From an uncultured Planctomycetota bacterium (GTDB taxonomy: Bacteria > Planctomycetota > Planctomycetia > Isosphaerales > Isosphaeraceae): a DNA stretch of 64,000 bases. Within the stretch, counting starts at the first letter, position 1. The number at the start of each line of letters is the position of its first letter. This document shows, piece after piece, positions 33,270 through 59,902 of the stretch. The position numbers and the translations under genes were made by a program. Below the pieces are notes generated by a model. It did not search any database, was not told the origin of the DNA, and saw only the letters and a program-made list of their open reading frames with translations. The DNA is taken from positions 96,001 through 160,000 of the forward strand of contig CAWJTV010000038.1 in NCBI GenBank assembly GCA_963845755.1. Direction: 5' to 3'.

Positions 33270-34541
33270 TCACGGCGACTTGGGGCCGATCCGGAACGGA
33301 CGGACGACGGTCTCGGTGGTGACGCGCCGAGAGATCGGGGTGACCGCATCGACCTCGAACGGCCGGGCGACACTGTTTCCCGAGGAGTCTTCGAGCTCGG
33401 TCCCGATCACCAGCCGGTAGTCGCCCGCCCGCCACGGATGCGGTGGCGTGAATCGCCATCGGGTCTCCTCGGCGGTCACGGAGATCTGGCCGGCGACAGC
33501 GTTTCCCGCGGCTTCCTGGACGATGACCAGGCGATCGAGCATCGCCCGGTCCAGCGGCTCGGGGAATCGGACTTCCAGCGGGTCGCGCGACTCGGCCGCG
33601 GGTGGCCGGATGTCCCAGTTCCTGGGGTCGGGCGAGGTCTCGTCCGCCGGGGCGGTCCGGAACGCCTTGCGGACCGGGCCGGCGAGCGGATTCCCCTCCG
33701 CGTCGGGCCAGCCGCCGTCGATGACCAACTGGTAGGACTTGCCCGCCTCCAGGATCGGCCCGACCTCCTCGCGGGGTTTCAGCCCGCGCTTGACCCGGCC
33801 CGGGTCGAATAGGAGCGTGAACCGCTTCCCATCCCGGGACCAGAGCTCCTCGTCCAGTTCCAGGAACGGGTCATCCACCGGCTTGCCCGTCGCATCGAGC
33901 AAACGGATCCGGCGGTAGGCTTCTCCCCGACTCATCGGGGCGGAGAAATGGATGTAGAGCCGGAGCAGGTTTTCCGGCAACATCGCTCGTGACGGATAGA
34001 TGTGAGTCACCGTCGCCGGGGGATGCGGGCGCGCTTCGGTGGGGAGAAATCGGCCGTAAGCCTGATCTGCAACCGGCTGGGCCGGATCCACCTGTCGCTT
34101 CGCGATCTCATCCAGATGGATCAGGTTGACCTCGGCCCGGTAACGAAGGCCCGGCTCCAGGGGAAATCGGGGCACAAATCGGATGACATGGTCGTCCACC
34201 TGGTAAGAGCCCAGCAGGGGCGGCGGGTCGGTCGCTCCGGATGGGGGTTCGGCGATCACGCGGACCGTCAAGAACGACGTGCCGCGCTCGCGCGCGATCC
34301 CGGTCTTGCTCAGTGCGGCCAGGGCGTCGCGATCGACACCCCGCAACTCGACCACGGCATCCGTTCCGTCGGTCTTTCGGAGGATCCACCGTAACTGCGG
34401 TACATCCGGCGAGGGAGAGTCCGCGGTATGCACCGTGGGGATGTCGGCTGGAGGGGAAGCGGACGGTGCGGGGGCGCTCCCCTCCAAGAGGGGAAACGCC
34501 CCCAAGATCAGCAACAGCAAGAAAACGGACCGGTCGGTCAC
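33270..34541 (-). CDS. Secreted hypothetical protein with Ig-like (Big_5-like) modules
   Basis: Signal peptide; FVPRFPLEPGLRY, PENLLRLYIHFSAPM, FTLLFDPGRVKRGL, FPEPLD; GTG start overlaps the upstream stop (GTGA). Confidence 0.8.
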   Translation of the reverse strand: MTDRSVFLLLLILGAFPLLEGSAPAPSASPPADIPTVHTADSPSPDVPQLRWILRKTDGTDAVVELRGVDRDALAALSKTGIARERGTSFLTVRVIAEPPSGATDPPPLLGSYQVDDHVIRFVPRFPLEPGLRYRAEVNLIHLDEIAKRQVDPAQPVADQAYGRFLPTEARPHPPATVTHIYPSRAMLPENLLRLYIHFSAPMSRGEAYRRIRLLDATGKPVDDPFLELDEELWSRDGKRFTLLFDPGRVKRGLKPREEVGPILEAGKSYQLVIDGGWPDAEGNPLAGPVRKAFRTAPADETSPDPRNWDIRPPAAESRDPLEVRFPEPLDRAMLDRLVIVQEAAGNAVAGQISVTAEETRWRFTPPHPWRAGDYRLVIGTELEDSSGNSVARPFEVDAVTPISRRVTTETVVRPFRIGPKSP

Positions 34542-35650
34542 GGCAGGTCAATCGTCTCGAGGTTCAGACCGTTCGCGTCCTGGACCAGAATGACGGCGTG
34601 GCTGTTGTCGAGCTGGTCTAACTGGACGACGCCCTTGAGGCTGGCAATCGTGTCATATCCCAGCCCCTTGGTGCCACCACCCCGCACGGGCTGGGTGATG
34701 CTCTCGGCCGTTCCGGCTCCCTCGGTGGTAATCTTCATCACGCCCCGGCTGCTGTTGGCCATCAGCAGATAATCCTTGCCGTCCTTCTGATAGACGATCA
34801 TGTCCAGCGGCCGGTTGCGGTTTCCCAGCTCGGCGATGGTCGTCCCCTTGACATGGGCGCCGGCCTTCAGCTCGGCGACGGGCATCTTGACCAGCGGGGT
34901 GCATTGATAGGCGGCCAGCAGATACGGCTCGTTCTGGATCTTGTAGGCCACGAACGTCCGGACCGGCGACTTGGTCTCGAACTGCCCATGTGCACCATGG
35001 TAGATCTCGATGGCCGCGCCATCGAAGCCCTCGGTGCTGAAGGGGAACGGGATGGCGATCAGCCGCGAGGAGAACTCCTCGTTCGACAGGCCCGCCAGGA
35101 AAACGCGGCCGTCCACGTAGGCCAGGTCGGTGATCGACGCAGTCCGGGGATCCTCCCGTGCCCCAGAACGGGGGGCCGGCGCGTTGGGGACCTCGGCCTT
35201 GGCGAACCGAACGTTCTCCAGCGCCAGTTCTTCGAGCTTGCCATCGCCGTGAATCCGGAAGATGACCGGGATCGCGTCGGGCCCGCGGCCGCGCGAGACC
35301 GAGACATACACGTTGCCCGACAAAGGATTAACGGCCATATCGTTGACCTGCACCTGGCGGGCATCGGTCCCGAGCATGCCGGCGATCTTGCCGGCCAGGT
35401 CCTTGACCGCGACTGGACGCTTCTCCGTCGCCGTCGCCCGGTCGCCGGTGTCGATGGCGAACAGCGCGGCGCCCTTGGTGTCGCCCACGAACAGGATGCC
35501 TTCCGGCCCGAACGTCAACGGGCCCGCCGACTTGATGTCGGGCTTCCCTTGCTTGAGACTCGCCGTGGGCTCCGCCGCCACCGCCATTGCTGCGGTCAAC
35601 GCGATCCCCGCCAGCGCCAAGACCGCTCCGCGAATTCCCATCCTCGACAT
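34538..35650 (-). CDS. Secreted hypothetical beta-propeller-like protein
   Basis: AAGGAGA RBS, signal peptide, blade-like motifs (LTFGPEGILFVGD, DMAVNPLSGNVYV, DLAYVDGRVFL, PLDMIVY). Confidence 0.85.
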   Translation of the reverse strand: MSRMGIRGAVLALAGIALTAAMAVAAEPTASLKQGKPDIKSAGPLTFGPEGILFVGDTKGAALFAIDTGDRATATEKRPVAVKDLAGKIAGMLGTDARQVQVNDMAVNPLSGNVYVSVSRGRGPDAIPVIFRIHGDGKLEELALENVRFAKAEVPNAPAPRSGAREDPRTASITDLAYVDGRVFLAGLSNEEFSSRLIAIPFPFSTEGFDGAAIEIYHGAHGQFETKSPVRTFVAYKIQNEPYLLAAYQCTPLVKMPVAELKAGAHVKGTTIAELGNRNRPLDMIVYQKDGKDYLLMANSSRGVMKITTEGAGTAESITQPVRGGGTKGLGYDTIASLKGVVQLDQLDNSHAVILVQDANGLNLETIDLP

Positions 35651-35879: not shown

Positions 35880-38122
35880 ATGATCGGCGGGATGATGGTC
35901 TGTGTGGCGCTGGTGGGTGCATGCTTCGGCGACGAACCAACGCCTGTGGCCGGCGATCGGGCCATCGACCGCTCGACCTACGGGGCGGCCAAGAAAGAAG
36001 CGGGTCGCGACGCCAAGGCGCACGTCCGGCTGGCCCTCTGGTGCGAATCGCACGGCCTGCGGCTCGGAGCGGATGAAGCACCTGGCGATGGCCGTGCTCT
36101 ACGATCCCTCCAATGCCCTGGCGCGCGGGCTGATGGGCCTGGTCGACCTATCAAGGGAAATGGGAGCGGCCCGACGAGGTCAGCCGGCAAGTGCAGGACG
36201 ACCCCAAACGCAAAGCCCTGATGCAAGAATACCTCCAGCGCCGGGCCAAGACCTCCGACAGGGCCGACGATCAGTGGAAGCTGGCCCTCTGGTGCGAGCA
36301 GAACGAGCCTGAAGGATCAGGCGATCGCGCAGTATCACGCCGTCCTGCGTCGGGATCCGACCCGCGAAGCGGCCTGGAAGCGGCTCGGGTTCAAGAAGAT
36401 CCGGCGGCCACTGGACCAAGCCGGAATGGCTGGCGGCGCAGAAACAGGAACTCGAGCAGCAAAGCCGGGCCAACAAGCACTGGATGCCCCTGCTGGAGAA
36501 ATGGCATTCGCGGCGCTCTCGAGTCGTGACACAAGCGCGACGCGACTCAAGCGGAAGAGGGGAATGGCGCAGGTGTCCGATCCCCGGGCGGTGCCGGTGA
36601 TCTGGGCGGTGTTCGTGCCCAAGGGTGCGGAGGGTCAGGAGGTGGCCGTGCGGCTGCTGGGCCAGATCGATGCACCGGGCTCGTCGCGGGCACTGCCTGC
36701 TCCTGGCCTTGAGGAGTCGCAGCGCCGAAGCTCGCCGAGAGGCCGTCCAGATCCTGCGTCACCGTCGACCCGCGGGACTTCGCCCCGCTCTTGATCGCGA
36801 TGATCCGCGACCCGATCAAGTACCAGGTCAAGCCGGTCAGCAGGGGCCGGGTCCCAAGACTGGCGAGCTTGTGATCAACGAATAGGGATGCAACATCGAA
36901 GCGTCTGTACACGCCGCTGGCTCCGAGCCGAATCCCGTCCTGGCCAATGGTGACTCGACCATCATGGCGCCGCGGGTTTGCCCGTCATCATGCTCCCACG
37001 TGGGCCAGTCCGAAACGGGTTTCGATGCCGTGTCTCGTCCGTTGCTGTGGCCACCACGCCGATTCGGCTATGAACCCGGTCTCGCCCGCTCAGGTGACCA
37101 TATCATGGCCCAGGCAGGAATTCCCCTTCTGAGTCGAGGCCCAGAAGTTCGGCCGCCATCATCCGCCCAGGACGTCAATTCTCCTTTGAGTCCAGGACCT
37201 GGGAGGCCCATGCCAATACTCGAGTCCGCGCGGCGGGTGCTTGTATCGACCAGTATCTGGCGATTCCTGTCGGGCGGATGATGCTCGAACTCCCAGCGAT
37301 CGGCCCAGGTGGCGCGCAGCAGCTCGCCGGTGATGTTCAAGGCCGATCGAGGCCTACAACGCTCCGTCCAGCAAGCGAATCGGCTGGTCAGGCAGGTCCT
37401 CGCCGAGGAACGGTGGGCACCGACATGGGGGACGACCAGTTCAGCGTGGACAGAAATGGATGGTCGATCTCTTCGGCTATCGCCTTAGCCGCTCCGCCAG
37501 AAAGCTCGACCGACGAGCCACCACGGTCATCGAGCAGGTGCCCTCTGGCTTATCAGCCCCAGGCCCGCGATGCCGGTGATTGCCAGCCGGTCGCCGAGGT
37601 CCAGACGATCCGCTACCATTCTTGCTTTGCCGCGGGGACGCTCGTTCAGACGATCGAGGGCCACGCCCAATCGAGGGCCTCCTCGCCGGTGACGACGTCC
37701 TGACGCAGGACCCCAGGACCGGCGAGCTGAGATACCAGTCCCTGGTCGCGGTCTACCACAATCCGCCCAATGCGACGTTCCGCGTCGATCTGGCGGACGT
37801 CGATGAGCCGATCGTCGCGACCGGCATCCACCGGCTCTGGAAAGCGGGCAAGGGTTGGGCCATGGTCCGCGACCTCAAGCCGGGCGATGTGCTGCGGACC
37901 CTGGGAGGGACCGTCGCGGTGAAGTCGGTCAAGGAGGAGCGCGTTCAGCCGGTGTTCAACCTGCGGGTGGCCGACGGCGAGAGCTTCTTCGTGGGCCGGA
38001 CGGGTATACTGGCACACGACAACAGCACGATCAACCCCACGCCCGAGCCGTTCGACGCCGTCGAGGCCCTGCCGGAGCTGGAGACTCGGCCGGCCGCGAA
38101 ACGATCCATACTCGGCCGCTGA
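35880..38122 (+). pseudogene. Secreted TPR/HEAT-like protein with C-terminal HINT (PT-HINT/BIL-like) domain, paralogue 1; many frameshifts (pseudogene or poor consensus)
   Basis: Fragments match paralogue 2 (AHVRLALWCE, MKHLAMAVLYDPSNALARGLMGLV, DPRAVPVIW); HINT from SCFAAGTLV (Cys at 37623) through VATGIHRLW and VFNLRV to LAHDNS. Confidence 0.85.
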
Positions 38123-38156
38123 ACGACCGATCGATCCTGATCGAGGAGTCGGAATC

Positions 38157-40194
38157 ATGCTCTCGATAATCCTGGTGAGTCTCAGCCTGATCGCTGCCGG
38201 GGACGACGGCCGATCGTCAACTCCGGAGGACCACTCGGCCTACGAGGCGGCGAAAACCCAGGCGGGGCACGATGCCAAGGCGCACGTCCGTCTGGCCCTG
38301 TGGTGCGAGGCGCACGGGATGTCCGCCGAACGGATGAAGCACCTGGCGATGGCCGTGCTGTACGATCCCTCCAACGCCCTGGCCCGCGGGCTGATGGGCC
38401 TGGTCGCCTACCAGGGGAAGTGGGAGCGTCCGGAGGCGATCCAGCAGGAGATCCAGGATGATCCAACACGCCATAATTTGATCCGTGAATACCTGGAACG
38501 GCGGGCTCTCGCGCCGCGCAAGCCGGATGCCCAGGCCCGGCTGGCCACCTGGTGCGAGCAGAAGGGACTCAAGGAGCAGGCGATCGCGCACTTCACGGAG
38601 GCGGTGCGGCTGGACCCGTCGCGGGAGGCCACCTGGCGGCATCTCGGATACAAGAAGCAGGGGAGTCGCTGGATCAAGGCGGACGAACTGGCCGCCGATC
38701 GGCTGGCCGCCGATCGGCAGCGGCATGCGGATAAGCAATGGGAGCCGAAACTGAAACGGCTGCGCGAATCCCTGGAATCCAAGGACCCGGCGCGCGGGCC
38801 AAGGCAGAAGCGGAGGTCGCCGAGCTGACCGATCCCCGCGCCGTGCCGATGATCTGGGTCGTTTTCGTCCGCGGTCACGAGCGATCGCAGCGCGCCGCCG
38901 TGCAGATGCTCGGCCAGATCGACGGGCCGGCGGCGTCCAACGCCCTGGCCGCACTCGCCGTCTTCAGCCCTTCGGCCGAAGTCCGGGGGCGAGCGATCGA
39001 GACCCTGGCCCGTCGCGATCCCCGCGACGTCATCGGCCGATTGATCCAGCTCGTCCGCAAGCGCTTCAAGTACGAGGTCCGTCGCCCGGGGGGCCCGGGT
39101 ACGCGGGGCGAGCTGTTCGTCGAGGGCGAACGATACAACGTCGATCGCGTCTACCTGAACCCGGCGATCAACCCCGCGTCGATCCCACCCCGCCTGTTCG
39201 CGCCGTCGGTCCCATTCGATCCGTACAGGCGCAGAACCAGATCCTGGTCTCAACGGTCCTGGGAGGCATGACGTTCACGACATCTCGATCGGGGCCGAAT
39301 GTCGCGCAGGTCGGGCAGGCGCTGGCGGCCAATCCGCGGAATGCCCAGGAAATCCTCAAGAACGCCGCGAATGCGCCGCCGGCCGCGGCCTTCAATCCCG
39401 CCTCCAACCTGGTCTATGACACCCTGGCGGCCGCCGCATACCGCGATATGCAGATCGCTTCGAAGTACCAGGAGATCGCGCAGGAAAGCCGGAACTTGCA
39501 GCAGAAGGTCGCCCAGGACGTCCAGACGGTCGAGACGATCAACACCCAGATCGGCGAGCTCAACGGCCGGGTCCTTCCCGTGCTCAAACTGCTCACCGGC
39601 CAGGACCTGGGCGCGGAGCCCGAGAAATGGAAGGCCTGGTGGACCGACCAGCTCGGCTACGTCTATCAGTCGAACATCCCCGAGACCAAGCCGACGCTCA
39701 CCGACATCGTGGCCCCGTTCACGATCGGCACGAGCCACACGGCGTGCTTCGCGGCCGGCACGCTGGTCTCCACCCTGGACGGCCCGCGGGCGATCGAGTC
39801 GATCCAGGTCGGCGACCGCGTCCTGTCGCAGGATCCCACGAGCGGCTCGCTGACGTTTCAGCCGGTGATCGCCCTGCATCACAACCGACCCTCGGCGACG
39901 CTCCGGCTCTCGTTCGACGGCGAGACGATCGTCGCGACCGGCATCCATCGCTTCTGGAAGGCCGGCAAGGGTTGGATCATGGCCCGCGACCTCAAGACGG
40001 GAGATGAGATCCGCGCGATCGGTGGCATCGCCCGCGTGCAGTCGACGGAGACCGATACCACCCGGCCGGTCTATAACCTCGACGTGGCCGAGAACCGGGA
40101 TTTCTTCGTCGGGACCAAAGGTTTCCTGGTCCACGACTTCAGCTTCGTACAGCCAGTCCTGGCGCCGTTCGACCGCGCGTCCCCTGGGCGTTAG
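38157..40194 (+). CDS. Secreted TPR/HEAT-like protein with C-terminal HINT domain, paralogue 2; frameshifted near 38795 and 39230
   Basis: GAGGAG RBS, signal peptide, helical repeats, ACFAAGTLV (Cys at 39745), VATGIHRFW, VYNLDV, FLVHDFS. Confidence 0.9.
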
Positions 40195-40216: not shown

Positions 40217-40343
40217 GCGCCGTGCGCGCATCGGCCGAATTCCCAATTCGAGATTCGAGATTCCGGAATCGTCCTCATCCGGAATCTCGAATCCGGAATC
40301 TCGAATCGGCAAGCCCAATTGGGTTGCGGCCGAAGGCCGCGTT
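40217..40343 (-). repeat. Composite palindromic repeat, copy B
   Basis: Inverted homologue of 25035-25153, lying between the convergent HINT gene and hflX. Confidence 0.85.
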
Positions 40344-42870: not shown

Positions 42871-43161
42871 ATGCGACCTGACCACGTGGATTGGGACGAG
42901 CCGGACGACTCCCAGGGGAATGTCTGGCAGATCGCCGCGGCGGACCTGTCCCGGCAGGAGGTGGAGGATGTGCTGGACAATCCCGACGCTGACGCCGTCC
43001 CGAGCGAAGGGGCGGCCGAGGGTACCGAGCGCTGGATCGTCTTCGGCCCGACGTCTACCGGCAAGCACATCGCCGTGGTCTTCGAGATCCTCTGCGACGA
43101 CCCCTACTCTGTCCGGCCCATCACTGCTTACGAGACTCCGGAATACGGGGAGGGGGACTGA
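42871..43161 (+). CDS. BrnT/DUF497-like putative toxin
   Basis: WD.....GN......LS..EVEDVL, RWIVFG.T..G..IAVVFE, VRPITAY. Confidence 0.75.
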   Translation: MRPDHVDWDEPDDSQGNVWQIAAADLSRQEVEDVLDNPDADAVPSEGAAEGTERWIVFGPTSTGKHIAVVFEILCDDPYSVRPITAYETPEYGEGD

Positions 43162-43164
43162 GGC

Positions 43165-43734
43165 ATGGGAGCGAAGAGCCAGCCGCGGGGATCAGGCTTG
43201 ACCCCGGAGCAGAGGGCGCGGATCGAGGCCATCCGGGTCGCGAACCGGACGCCGGAAGCCCGGGCGCGCCAGGCCGCCGTCCGGGAGGAGTATGCCGACA
43301 AGCCGGGGCTCGTTGAGTTGATACAGCGGGGACAGGCCGATTCCGAGCGCATCACGACGATGGGGGCGGTGGGGGCCTTGCTGAAGGCCACGGCGGTCGT
43401 GCGCCGGGCGCGTGAGGCCAAAGGGCTCTCGTTGACCGACGTGTCCCGCAGATCGGGGCTGCCGCTGCCGGCCCTGAGCCGGCTGGAATCGGGCAAGAAC
43501 CCGCGGCCTACTTTCGAGACCCTCGCCCGCTACGCGTCCGGCGTCGGGCTGGAAGTCAACGTCATCATCCGGGAAAAAGGGGAGAGCGAACACCGGACAT
43601 CGACCGCGGAGGACGAGGTTCTCACGGTCCGCTCGGCGGACCTCGATCGACTCGTCGCGACGATCCAAGGGCAGATCGACGCATTCCGGGCTTCCTCCCA
43701 CGGGGCCACTTCCGCAGCCGGCGGCGATTTGTGA
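43165..43734 (+). CDS. XRE/HTH_3 transcriptional regulator, putative antitoxin
   Basis: RRAREAKGLSLTDVSRRSGL...ALSRLESGKNPRPTFETLARYA; starts 3 nt after the toxin stop. Confidence 0.85.
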   Translation: MGAKSQPRGSGLTPEQRARIEAIRVANRTPEARARQAAVREEYADKPGLVELIQRGQADSERITTMGAVGALLKATAVVRRAREAKGLSLTDVSRRSGLPLPALSRLESGKNPRPTFETLARYASGVGLEVNVIIREKGESEHRTSTAEDEVLTVRSADLDRLVATIQGQIDAFRASSHGATSAAGGDL

Positions 43735-43880
43735 CAGGCATCCGGCTCAGAGCTTGGGAAAGGGTCGGATTCCCGATCCCGAATTCACGATTCAAGATTC
43801 CTAAGCCTCGGCTCCATCCGGGCTTAACATCCATTCGGAATCTTAAATATGTGGTCTTGAATCGATCCTTTCACAGCCTC

Positions 43881-45132: not shown

Positions 45133-45720
45133 ATGCCGATTCTGCCTGTCGAGCCCGATTGTCATCCGTTGAACCTCTGGGAAGAGCCGGACGCGCTGCC
45201 GGCCAAGGAGGAGGGAACCTGGTTGTGCTTGCATACCAAGCCCCGCCAGGAGAAGTCGACCGCCCGCGACCTTCGCGAACAGGGAGTGGTTTATTATCTG
45301 CCACAGGTTGTCAAAGAAAGTCGAACGCCCAACGGCCGCAAACTCCGATCGATTGTGCCCCTGTTCCCGGGATATCTGTTCCTTTACGGCGATGCGAACG
45401 ACCGGTTGGTGGCCTTGCGCGGAAATCGACTGGTGAACGTCCTGACGGTAGTCGACCAGGAAGGGCTGGTCCACGACCTGCGCCAGGTCAACACGATGCT
45501 CCACTCGGGCCTCGCCGTCTCGGACACGCCCATGGTTCCCGTGGGGGCGAAGGTCCGGATCATGACCGGCCCACTGACCGGAATCGAGGGCACGGTGATC
45601 CGCCGGGGAAATCGAGATCAGTTCGTGGCCGTGGTCCACTTCCTCGGCCGCGGAGCCATGGTCGACCTCGAGGATTGGCAGGTTGAACAGGTTCGGGGTC
45701 AGTCCGAATCGGACGGCTGA
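45133..45720 (+). CDS. Specialised NusG paralogue (RfaH/UpxY-like antiterminator)
   Basis: WLCLHTKPRQEK, YYLP, PLFPGYLFL NGN domain; VGAKVRIMTGPLTGIEG KOW motif. Confidence 0.9.
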   Translation: MPILPVEPDCHPLNLWEEPDALPAKEEGTWLCLHTKPRQEKSTARDLREQGVVYYLPQVVKESRTPNGRKLRSIVPLFPGYLFLYGDANDRLVALRGNRLVNVLTVVDQEGLVHDLRQVNTMLHSGLAVSDTPMVPVGAKVRIMTGPLTGIEGTVIRRGNRDQFVAVVHFLGRGAMVDLEDWQVEQVRGQSESDG

Positions 45721-57292: not shown

Positions 57293-58745
57293 ATGATGCG
57301 ACGATTGAAAGGAAGGACGCTCTTCCTGGGCATGACGCTCGTCGCCGCGTTCATGGCGCGGCCGTGGACTCCCGTGGTTATCGCCCAGGAGGGAGGGCCC
57401 AGCGCGGCGAGCGAGGCCGACTTCAAGCCGGTGCCGCTGCCCGACCCCGGCATCCCGGGCTTCGTCTTCCCGGAGAAGGAAGCCAAAATCCTTGGCTGGG
57501 TCCAGCACAAGAATCACGCGGCGATCGATCGACACGTCTGGGGGATCTGGACGGCGCTCACGGCCCCGTCGGGTGTCAAGTTCGAAGGTCAGGAGCTTCG
57601 CGTCTTCGAGACCTGGGACACGCCCGGCGACCTGCTCGACGCCGCCGCGAGCGCCCGCGGGGCGCCGCGAGCCAAGCGTAACCCGCGGCCGCTCACGTCT
57701 CTCCGGCAGCTCGGCCACGGCGGCATGAACTTTCGGAGCCTCCGCGCCGGCGAGTCGACCGTGACGGGCTTCGTGAAGTACGACCCGGTGGCGGCGAAGC
57801 ACATCACCGACAAGAAACTGCTCTCGATCTCGCAACTGAATTCCTTGCTCAGCTCGGGTGCGACGGAGGTCCCGACCTTCCCCGTGGCGGCCGTCTCGCT
57901 CAAGCCGGTCTTCACCACGATCTCGGCGTCCCAGCTCGTTCGACGGCCGATATTTCCTCCTGCCGGCATGGCCGGGGCCGCCGACCACGCCCCAACCGTT
58001 CCCGCCGAATGACTGGAAACAGTTCGTCTGGGTCAACATCAAGGCAACCGGCGACGGCACCGGTACGGGCAAGGTGGACACCGTCGGCAAGGTCGACGGG
58101 AGCTCACGGACCCCGCAGACAACCTACGGCGTCAATCGCTTCATTCACTTCCGCCTCTCCGCTGCCCAGGCCCAGGCGTTGAATGCCCTCAACGATGCGG
58201 TGCCCGCCGGTCGGGCCCCGCGCGCCGCGGAGGGGGATTTCTCGGTGCTCCTGGGGATGCACACGACGAGCCGCGAGATCACCCGATGGACCTGGCAGAC
58301 GTTCTGGTGGACGCCCGCCCCGGACGACCCTCCTGCCCCCAGCTCGAAGGCGATCGCGTCCCATCGACCCGCCGAACTCAAAGGGGCCCCGCGTAACTAT
58401 GCCGTCGCGATCGCGTACGACATGGTCTCGCCGCCGCAGCCCAACACCGGCGGCCAGAATGTCGGCGAGTCCATCTACGCCTACAATCCGTGGCTCGAGG
58501 CGGGCTTCGGGCCGGGGAACCTGCCGAGTTCCCAGCCGGGGACGTACAAGGGCAGGCCCGTTGCCAATAACGTCGGTGTGCAGACCAACTGCATGAGCTG
58601 CCACGCCCAGGCGTGCTATTCCACGACGGGGTCCCAGGACCCTTCGCTCTATACCGGCGACCAGTATATCGACCTCGGCGGTTCCCAGTTCCAGGGCAAG
58701 CTCCGCGTCGATTTCCTCTGGTCGCTGCCCGACCTCGCCCGCTAG
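57293..58745 (+). CDS. Secreted hypothetical protein with a C-terminal CxxCH (putative monoheme cytochrome c); frameshifted near 57940
   Basis: GAGGAG RBS, signal peptide, GMHTTSRE..RWTWQTFWW, YAYNPWLE, TNCMSCHA, DFLWS. Confidence 0.8.
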
Positions 58746-58882
58746 GGCGCGAACCGACGTTCACCGATATGGGAGGATCGGAGTTCGGATCCTCCCGAGA
58801 TCCTTGTCAGCCGATCCGGGGCCGCATCGCTCGTCCGACGTCGGCCGGTCGATGCGACGTCCCGCACCCCCTCAACCTGGAG

Positions 58883-59902
58883 ATGATCATGAAAGCAATC
58901 ACGATGATGGCCGTCTGCGCGATGATCCTGGCCACGGCGACGTTCGGTTGGAGCGCGCAGGGCCAGCAAGCAGGTACACACCCCCTCAACGCACCGTATC
59001 CCCAGGATGTGCCTAACGACCCGCAGAGCAAATTCCTGGTCAAGCTCGTCAGGCGGTGTGGGACCTCCGCGCCCGACGATCATCGACGTTCGGCCCTCCG
59101 CCTGCGGACCGCCCCATTTCGCGTGGCGAACCTCCGCGCGATGGCGACCGCGACGAAGCCGGTCACGGTCAACGTCTACTTCCACGTCATCCACAAGGGG
59201 ACGACCGGCAATGTCACCGACGCCCAGATCTCCAAGCAGATTGACGTCCTCAACGAGGATTACAAGTCCCACGGCTTCCAGTTCGCCCTGAAGGCCACCA
59301 GCCGGACCGACGTGGATGACCCGAGCATCAACAAGCCGGGTTGGTTCACCATGAGCGGCGGCAGCGCCGACGAGCTCGACGCGAAGACGACCTTGTCGGT
59401 GAACCCCGCGCAGAACCTGAACCTCTACACCGCCGAGCCGACGGACCCGGTCCTCGGGGGACTGCTGGGGTTCTCGACCTTCCCCTGGGACCTGGCGGGC
59501 AACCCGAAGGTTAACGGGGTGGTCATCCTCCACTCGTCGCTGCCCGGAGGGGTCGCACCGTTCAACCTCGGCAAGACGGCCACTCACGAGGTCGGCCACT
59601 GGTTGGGCCTGTACCATACCTTCCAGGGGGGCTGTACCCCGCCGGGTGACGAGGTGGACGACACGCAGGCCCAGCCCGATGGTGACAACATCTTCCAATG
59701 CGATCCGATGACCAATATTTGCCCCGGCGGCGACCCGGCGAAGGCCCCGATCCACAACTATATGAACTACGCCGACGACTCCTGCCTGACCGAGTTCACC
59801 CTGGGCCAGACGGAACGGATGAAGGTGGAGGTGAGCCTCTATCGCAAGCTCGTGGTGGATCCGGACGTGCGCAAGAATCTCCGCACGTTCGCGAGCCGCT
59901 AG
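58883..59902 (+). CDS. M43 family (ulilysin/pappalysin-like) zinc metalloprotease
   Basis: Signal peptide, RRCGT cysteine-switch-like prodomain, VYFHVI, HEVGHWLGLYHTF, NYMNY Met-turn, FTLGQTERM. Confidence 0.93.
   Translation: MIMKAITMMAVCAMILATATFGWSAQGQQAGTHPLNAPYPQDVPNDPQSKFLVKLVRRCGTSAPDDHRRSALRLRTAPFRVANLRAMATATKPVTVNVYFHVIHKGTTGNVTDAQISKQIDVLNEDYKSHGFQFALKATSRTDVDDPSINKPGWFTMSGGSADELDAKTTLSVNPAQNLNLYTAEPTDPVLGGLLGFSTFPWDLAGNPKVNGVVILHSSLPGGVAPFNLGKTATHEVGHWLGLYHTFQGGCTPPGDEVDDTQAQPDGDNIFQCDPMTNICPGGDPAKAPIHNYMNYADDSCLTEFTLGQTERMKVEVSLYRKLVVDPDVRKNLRTFASR

Follow-up and report, generated by a model that had tools for sequence, protein, structure and literature searches.

What does a Hint domain do when it closes a likely exported protein, ends in His-Asp rather than His-Asn, and is followed by a short tail in place of a toxin? 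The question is raised by two tandem genes in a window of 64,000 nucleotides from an uncultured planctomycete of the family Isosphaeraceae (contig CAWJTV010000038.1, positions 96,001 to 160,000). Three-frame translation places both genes head to tail on the forward strand (Table 1), with a common plan of hydrophobic leader, TPR-like and HEAT body, terminal Hint domain and short tail carrying the motif P-F-D. We find the feature to be real and family-wide, defining a large conserved Asp-ending Hint subfamily of likely exported scaffold proteins. Regarding its function, we give about an even chance to the explanation that Hint and tail form a self-removing cap, which would cut only before Cys1, have its thioester resolved by water and so unmask a variable C-terminal strand. 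The directly observed part of this explanation comprises the architecture, the conservation of residues, the diversification of tandem copies and the end of a clade that has no Hint domain.

Conserved residues and tail of the Asp-ending Hint

Both paralogues belong to the Hint superfamily on the basis of fold, block A nucleophile and the block B motif T-x-x-H. Pfam PT-HINT is above cut-off in both (E 8e-18 and 7e-9), and in the body HEAT_2 is above cut-off and TPR matches are below it. The best sequence match is 2lwy, an A-type bacterial intein-like (BIL) domain (E 2.7e-12), on which the predicted structure of an intact homologue superposes with Z 21.3 and a root mean square deviation of 1.4 Å over 134 residues. 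An earlier note on this DNA had described two tandem paralogues with leader, helical body and C-terminal Hint, and the motifs do lie where it placed them. Each retains Cys1 (S/A-CFAAGT) and TGIH, residues of the N-terminal thioester that are kept family-wide and that, as Cys1 with block-B Thr/His, drive thioester formation in characterised Hints (PMC4031507; published work is drawn on in excerpt throughout). From their sequence, the hydrophobic leaders are likely signal peptides.

When the C-terminal 308 residues served as query, 614 of the 7996 candidates scored were longer homologues, 120 of them listed, and a library at 50% identity gave 342 representatives at E 1e-30, of which 150 were listed. 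Among the rows of these 150, a small number of fragments and a single Asn-type protein with four Hints included, Cys1 is present in 147/153, block-B His in 150/156 and terminal Asp in 147/156, and the P, F and D of the tail are kept in 137, 147 and 145 of about 155. Almost all of these near representatives with enough upstream sequence share the TPR/HEAT body. The named records are Isosphaeraceae, including cultured Singulisphaera, Aquisphaera, Tundrisphaera and Tautonia, and 103 of 120 genomes of the family have a match. The His-Asp end with its short shared tail is not a matter of chance: F-D occurs in 350 of 353 distinct Asp-ending rows and in none of 18 Asn-ending Hints from the phylum that served as controls, a figure inflated by retrieval of the family sets with tail-containing queries. 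The conserved tail is about 14 residues long and mostly coil in the predicted structure, at moderate confidence (blocks 74 and 62).

A distant planctomycete clade, with source labels Pirellulales, Thermoguttaceae and Planctomycetales, is about 25% identical overall to the near one and has all four parts of the plan in 111/120 members, with Cys1 and block-B His in 120/120 and Asp in 119/120. It was found in 18 of 189 genomes from other families of the class, where 23 listed frames (22 distinct) all end in Asp and carry a P-G tail. The expectation in the earlier note that the tail would be conserved in homologues therefore holds within the near family, whereas the distant clade has P-T-x-x-x-V-P-G-L instead (P-G in 120/120). 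Because both clades share the set and the Asn-ending controls lack it, the terminal Asp, a short conserved tail and the TPR/HEAT body travel together. PADLOC gave no match, and neither PADLOC nor NCBIfam names a family for these proteins. In the ESM Atlas, the body leads to unnamed planctomycete clusters under 0.9 and the Hint to PT-HINT clusters. No paper on this family was found in the full-text literature, a scope outside which lie the original BIL papers and all supplements, including those of PMC3482391, where such proteins could be listed.

This conservation bears on whether the Hint is processed at all. It could be a structural or binding domain that is cleaved rarely or never in vivo, with Cys1 and Asp put to use in folding or in redox or metal sensing. 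At position 4, block F has Asn instead of the usual intein Asp (though 2lwy shares this), catalytic activity is only predicted from sequence, and a single Cys in an exported protein could be oxidised. However, Cys1 and block-B Thr/Ser and His are strictly kept across the divergent clades, the residue before Cys1 is restricted, and the domain has been lost at about the scissile position (see below), leaving an inert Hint improbable in our estimation.

Polymorphic toxins, or decayed ones, are what the database label 'polymorphic toxin-type HINT' would imply. The PT-HINT match, the likely export and tandem paralogues with variable regions speak for this, but a median of only 17–25 residues follows the Asp-ending Hint, compared with 112 in the controls, which end in His-Asn in 18/18 and have no P-F-D-type tail. 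The next gene, hflX, lies on the opposite strand 183 bp beyond the stop of paralogue 2, so the locus has neither a toxin nor an immunity gene, as the earlier note had stated. Likewise, no immunity-like or transferase partner gene recurs across 66 loci with flanks of up to 6 kb, where neighbours were called with our own codon model and checked in part against Pfam. The commonest same-strand, non-family gene downstream, with a weak DUF433 match, occurs at 4 loci. Polymorphic toxins vary after the Hint (PMC3482391), whereas here variation lies upstream of it. The toxin reading is already largely refuted, and we consider it very improbable.

A comparison of the residues on either side of the Hint suggests that the set for N-terminal chemistry is fixed while that for C-terminal cleavage and splicing drifts. 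The penultimate His is replaced in 23/353 near rows, and in 32/120 distant members, where 88/120 keep it, Gln, Tyr, Phe or Cys takes its place; one listed member, L005, ends its Hint in His-Gly. Block-F His is kept in 35/139 near representatives, compared with 11/18 controls. The residue after the terminal Asp (+1) is Asn in paralogue 1 and Phe in paralogue 2, and across the family mostly Asn, Phe, Val or Leu; in the distant clade it is never Cys, Ser or Thr (0/120) and is Val, Leu or Ile in 56/120. Canonical splicing needs Cys, Ser or Thr at +1, and Asn cyclisation is aided by block-F and penultimate His, neither of which is always required (PMC4031507). A separate subtype, S-L-E|C ... H-D-S, combines Glu at -1 with Ser at +1 (L063:2015-2941, L064:4378-6489, P0082, P0105 and P0107); formally this provides a nucleophile at +1, and such members might splice with Asp as the terminal residue.

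These residues also bear on a BIL-like alternative in which Asp replaces Asn, cleavage after Asp frees the tail, and the tail amine may attack the thioester, joining the tail to its own or another copy's body. The closest fold and sequence being A-type, the near-invariance of the terminal Asp, block-F His in 100/120 distant members and Ser at +1 in 7/121 closest homologues and 8/93 genome rows are in its favour, as are reports that Asp- or Gln-ending inteins can cleave and that A-type BILs ligate through a free amine (PMC4031507). Dispensability of the penultimate His, the His-Gly end of L005, the frequent aliphatic +1 residue, the loss of block-F His from most members in the host's family and the absence of the tail motif from the Hint-less clade weigh on the other side, and we think this alternative rather unlikely. 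The claim that a terminal Asp blocks C-terminal cleavage is correspondingly softened: the C-terminal set drifts and splicing residues are missing, but since cleavage at a terminal Asp is on record for some inteins (PMC4031507), this route is disfavoured rather than blocked.

Compared against known systems, the Asp-ending Hint falls outside the definitions of A-type BILs, inteins, polymorphic toxins and Hog domains. With A-type BILs and PT-HINT (PF07591; 2lwy) it shares Cys1, block B, block-F Asn, the lack of a homing endonuclease and, mostly, of a +1 nucleophile. The block A, B and F motifs of an A-type BIL are all present, but the C-terminal His-Asn (PMC4031507) gives way to Asp behind a variable penultimate His, a short, clade-specific conserved tail replaces the toxin domain that follows PT-HINT, and the domain is tied to a single type of TPR/HEAT body. 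Of the two marks of a polymorphic toxin, a C-terminal toxin domain and an adjacent immunity gene, it has neither. It also lacks those of a class 1 intein, namely a +1 Cys, Ser or Thr and insertion in a conserved host protein; inteins ending in Asp or Gln provide a precedent for the terminal Asp (PMC4031507), but interrupt conserved proteins and have a +1 nucleophile, whereas this domain is terminal. B-type BILs (PMC4031507) and Vint (PMC2362128) are Hints that have no His-Asn end and cleave without splicing, and 8r2c, used for comparison with B- and C-type BILs and Vint, matches the fold with Z 11.5. B-type BILs, however, have no likeness to intein block G, the shape of which is retained here (L-V-H-D versus L-V-H-N of 2lwy), and Hint_2 matches the first 30 residues only, below or near cut-off, with PT-HINT far better. 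C-type BILs, compared by description, have a PPS-1 N-terminal domain and occur in predatory bacteria (PMC9185962), in contrast to the TPR/HEAT body found here.

A Hint-less clade and diversification of the arrays

The strongest clue that the working product may be a body ending where Cys1 begins comes from relatives without a Hint. The host genome encodes such a paralogue (G000:C49:67743-69029, or L165:5744-7030), with one TPR-like unit, the family body and no Pfam match; at 5 loci of this group the next gene encodes a likely secreted protein with a POTRA match. The clade has at least 120 close homologues, and a Hint is present in none of 121 proteins. They end in V-x-V-D-S/T, with Asp at -2 in 115/121 and Ser or Thr last in 95/121. 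A near-full-length match in a short open frame is present in some two dozen of the family's 120 genomes, and no separate Hint gene was found beside the Hint-less loci examined.

The stop of Hint-less proteins falls at about the position of Cys1, matching within a few residues. From a shared motif, the median distance is 25 residues to the end in Hint-less forms (n=58) versus 27 to Cys1 in Hint-bearing forms (n=27), and from a second anchor it is 51 (114/121) versus 46 (84/126); the match is inexact because the pre-Cys1 segment varies in length. In a FastTree phylogeny built from 123 TPR/HEAT segments, which sampled every fourth of the Hint-less proteins together with Hint-bearing representatives and five outgroups, the 31 sampled Hint-less sequences form one clade (support 0.98) nested inside Hint-bearing forms. 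As this clade ends genetically near the cleavage position, a free C-terminus suffices there. The predicted Hint-less structure (predicted local distance difference test, pLDDT, 90) shows the insert as a long beta hairpin, and further contains a helix of 48 residues and, at its end, a beta strand (418-426). Fold searches with it returned generic TPR/HEAT matches only (best Z 8.5), barely covering the beta insert, and Foldseek gave no match at E 0.001. A homo-oligomer prediction with three Hint-less body copies scored 0.00 and was not used as evidence. A different Hint-less exported protein of about 430-470 amino acids is phylum-wide and apparently single-copy, with the same TPR-like unit and insert-interrupted HEAT repeats (G000:C29:41273-42990, L144, L153, L154, L158, L159, L161 and L162).

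Hint-bearing genes form arrays of up to nine copies at a spacing of about 2 kb. In two recent arrays the TPR/HEAT, Hint and tail regions are 61-78% identical between copies, compared with 14-15% for the insert and 28-31% for the segment before Cys1; an older array gives 15% and 17% for these two variable regions. Loci L061 (G330:C11) and L062 (G329:C5) have eight or nine head-to-tail copies with a conserved scaffold and hypervariable insert. L030 (G019:C87) and P0133 instead carry four tandem His-Asn Hints with very short spacers, P0133 also having subtilase and PKD domains.

Proposed N-terminal cleavage or possible ligation to an acceptor

We posit that the Asp-ending Hint works most like a Hint restricted to N-terminal chemistry. 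Precursors would be exported and would undergo an N-S acyl shift at the (Ser/Ala/Asp/Glu)|Cys1 junction, aided by T/S-x-x-H of block B, with neither splicing nor release of the tail. The invariant Asp would serve the N-terminal chemistry or hold the tail over the active site, and the thioester would be hydrolysed by water. The expected product is a TPR/HEAT scaffold that keeps its hypervariable insert and now ends in an exposed, variable C-terminal strand; the released body may have a role in recognition, adhesion or as an envelope scaffold, and array copies may represent different specificities. Phage tail-spike chaperone domains and strand-exchange pili may offer analogies. At the -1 position, Hint-bearing close forms have Ser (95/126) or Ala (24/126), and the distant clade, in which Ser is also used, has Glu in 26/120 and Asp in 28/120; the latter fits N-terminal cleavage, because Asp(-1) favours it in many inteins (PMC11842431). 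A conserved Lys before Cys1, as in sortase-processed pilins, was considered and rejected, as it is kept in the near set only and not in 69 diverse members.

Several points weigh against this explanation. Cleavage and its restriction to the N-terminal side are predictions from sequence. Simple hydrolysis leaves unexplained why an intact Hint, the invariant Asp and the tail are retained in hundreds of genes; block-F His is preserved in most distant members; and inteins ending in Asp can cleave at that residue (PMC4031507). The Hint-less clade may also have taken on a different function, and its proteins close with D-S/T where Hint-bearing forms have H-S/H-A before Cys1. The two ends agree in register within a few residues and not exactly, and the direction of Hint loss was read from a single FastTree phylogeny covering part of the body, in which deeper nodes have supports of 0.81-0.88, with no formal test of the clade. 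Lastly, the host's family has a His at Hint position 46, which fits, by analogy, activation of an outside nucleophile.

The position-46 His leads to a possible but doubtful alternative, that of Hedgehog-like ligation, in which an outside nucleophile (a lipid or sugar hydroxyl, or a cell-wall or protein amine) attacks the Cys1 thioester, the body becomes anchored or cross-linked in the envelope, and the tail gates or recruits the acceptor. His46 is present in both paralogues, 116/139 representatives and 64/93 genome rows, compared with 0/18 controls, with the register taken from counting from Cys1, from an equal-length Pfam Hint match (157-210 to 10-63) and from comparison by eye with the sequence in PMC12054796. 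In Hedgehog, D46 is the general base that activates the sterol, and a D46H variant is active with a wider substrate range (PMC9163320). Like the Hog domain (1at0; fold match Z 18.0, 15% identity), the Asp-ending Hint closes a likely exported precursor, appears suited to N-terminal chemistry and has a conserved extension past the Hint. Aligning model residues 534-666 to 1at0 258-402 puts the invariant Asp at or within about one position of Hedgehog C143, the residue that carries a branched intermediate (PMC12054796), and ligation would account for Hint retention.

Against ligation, His46 is not family-wide: the 121 closest homologues have His in 33 and Arg in 67, and it was not seen in the distant-clade rows inspected. 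Hedgehog with Asp in place of that Cys (C143D) is not processed (PMC12054796). The Hedgehog Cys143 and helical sterol or adduct recognition region are both absent, with Asp at or beside the position of the former and, in place of the latter, a far shorter tail whose motif is not the same in the two clades. Hint-less proteins persist with a free end, there is no known acceptor, and no partner or acceptor gene recurs at the 66 loci. Taken as a bacterial system, ligation would join variable TPR/HEAT proteins to envelope lipids, glycans or each other without a sortase or partner enzyme, possibly with Asp as a relay and with His46 as base in the Isosphaeraceae; this we consider conceivable though unlikely.

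In a few members (5/148 representatives: P0175, P0180, P0220, P0235 and P0270) an extracytoplasmic function (ECF) sigma factor and a transmembrane stretch are fused ahead of the TPR/HEAT/Hint module, and in the two examined at full length Cys1, TGIH, His-Asp and P-F-D are all present. Such fusions would place the module outside the inner membrane and hint at signalling, and these members could release or signal through Hint cleavage. A main function in ECF fusion was nevertheless rejected given this rarity and its absence from all 12 long-frame genome loci; planctomycete ECFs are reported to pick up downstream genes by chance (PMC7671368). The host genome has 148 sigma-like frames.

The locus and the significance of the family

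Table 1. Features of the two paralogues, in positions of the window
Feature	Position	Strand	Details
Paralogue 1	35880..38122	+	ATG 35880, stop 38120-38122; heavily frameshifted in the assembly
Paralogue 1, hydrophobic N-terminal leader	35880..35930	+	from sequence and family hydropathy
Paralogue 1, Hint	37623..38020	+	S|CFAAGT boundary; Ser(-1), Cys1 at 37623; one frameshift near 37657
Paralogue 1, His46	37757-37759	+	Hint position 46
Paralogue 1, TGIH	37820-37831	+	block B
Paralogue 1, LAHDNS	38009-38026	+	terminal His-Asp at 38015-38020
Paralogue 1, tail	38021..38119	+	P-F-D at 38048-38056
Paralogue 2	38157..40194	+	ATG 38157, stop 40192-40194; two single-base frameshifts
Paralogue 2, hydrophobic N-terminal leader	38157..38201	+	from sequence and family hydropathy
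Paralogue 2, two TPR-like units and linking helix	38240..38790	+	limits approximate
Paralogue 2, HEAT repeats and beta hairpin	38795..39160	+	limits approximate
Paralogue 2, hypervariable insert	39160..39430	+	limits approximate; 14-15% identity among array copies
Paralogue 2, long helix and W-x-x-W-W capping repeat	39430..39665	+	limits approximate
Paralogue 2, variable pre-Cys1 segment	39666..39744	+	predicted new C-terminus; 17-31% identity among array copies
Paralogue 2, Hint	39745..40137	+	A|CFAAGT boundary; Ala(-1), Cys1 at 39745
Paralogue 2, His45-His46-Asn47	39877-39885	+	Hint positions 45-47
Paralogue 2, TGIH	39937-39948	+	block B
Paralogue 2, LVHDFS	40126-40143	+	terminal His-Asp at 40132-40137
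Paralogue 2, tail	40138..40191	+	P-F-D at 40165-40173

Both frames are broken in the assembly. Paralogue 2 shares 76% identity with an intact homologue (P0008) and contains frameshifts of one base each at ~38794 and ~39228; in paralogue 1 there are about 15 relative to its nearest intact reference. A genome of the same genus has four array copies at the corresponding locus; the 5' flank and start of paralogue 1 match copy 1 and the remainder copy 3. Compared with that genome, substitutions in paralogue 1 are biased towards third positions (0.15/0.09/0.32 by codon position), and all 8 non-triplet gaps between 36360 and 36900 are insertions. This comparison favours assembly error over decay, although two upstream control genes run through the same aligner also yielded non-triplet gaps, 4 and 9 in number and balanced. 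The frameshifts of both paralogues are probably such errors, and the present state of paralogue 1 is most likely due to an array that collapsed during long-read assembly; real recombination and decay may instead lie behind it. The host genome has three more Hint-bearing members; in two the frame is unbroken across the matched region, and the third is interrupted close to its start.

Recurrent neighbours at the 66 loci are the hflX/truB cluster (13), an upstream gene without Pfam match (11), kinases and other common planctomycete genes. In the window, the gene upstream of paralogue 1 is divergent and has no Pfam match. It belongs to a pair of likely secreted genes at 33273-35644 (-), the other with a Big_5 match, which are divergent from the array and stand directly upstream of it at 11 and 6 of the loci. 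Between the array and hflX, repeated GAATCTCGAAT/ATTCGAGATTC motifs form inverted repeats (40218-40312) that resemble sequence near 43750 and are possibly an element like the repetitive extragenic palindromes (REP). Further downstream on the forward strand are a small gene followed by a helix-turn-helix (HTH) gene (42871-43734), resembling a toxin-antitoxin pair with a Pfam match for the HTH member only; a NusG-family gene (45169-45720), likely a specialised antiterminator paralogue, found beside truB/hflX at 10 of the 66 loci; and a frame-broken gene without known identity followed by an M43 metallopeptidase gene (57332-59899).

The outcomes of Hint chemistry that have been well worked so far are splicing, toxin release and Hedgehog sterol ligation, and databases label the Asp-ending subfamily as toxin-type despite the absence of a toxin. 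New here are a conserved Hint-less clade ending near Cys1, which serves as a natural control for the likely form of the mature product, and the diversification of arrays at the insert and pre-Cys1 segment. Occurrence of the family in cultured Isosphaeraceae makes direct testing possible. If hydrolysis is the outcome, the family would offer a self-timed means by which an exported scaffold unmasks its variable C-terminal strand, and would be a source of cleavage-only tags. If ligation is the outcome, planctomycetes would possess a bacterial equivalent of Hedgehog processing and, with it, a new way of anchoring proteins in the envelope.

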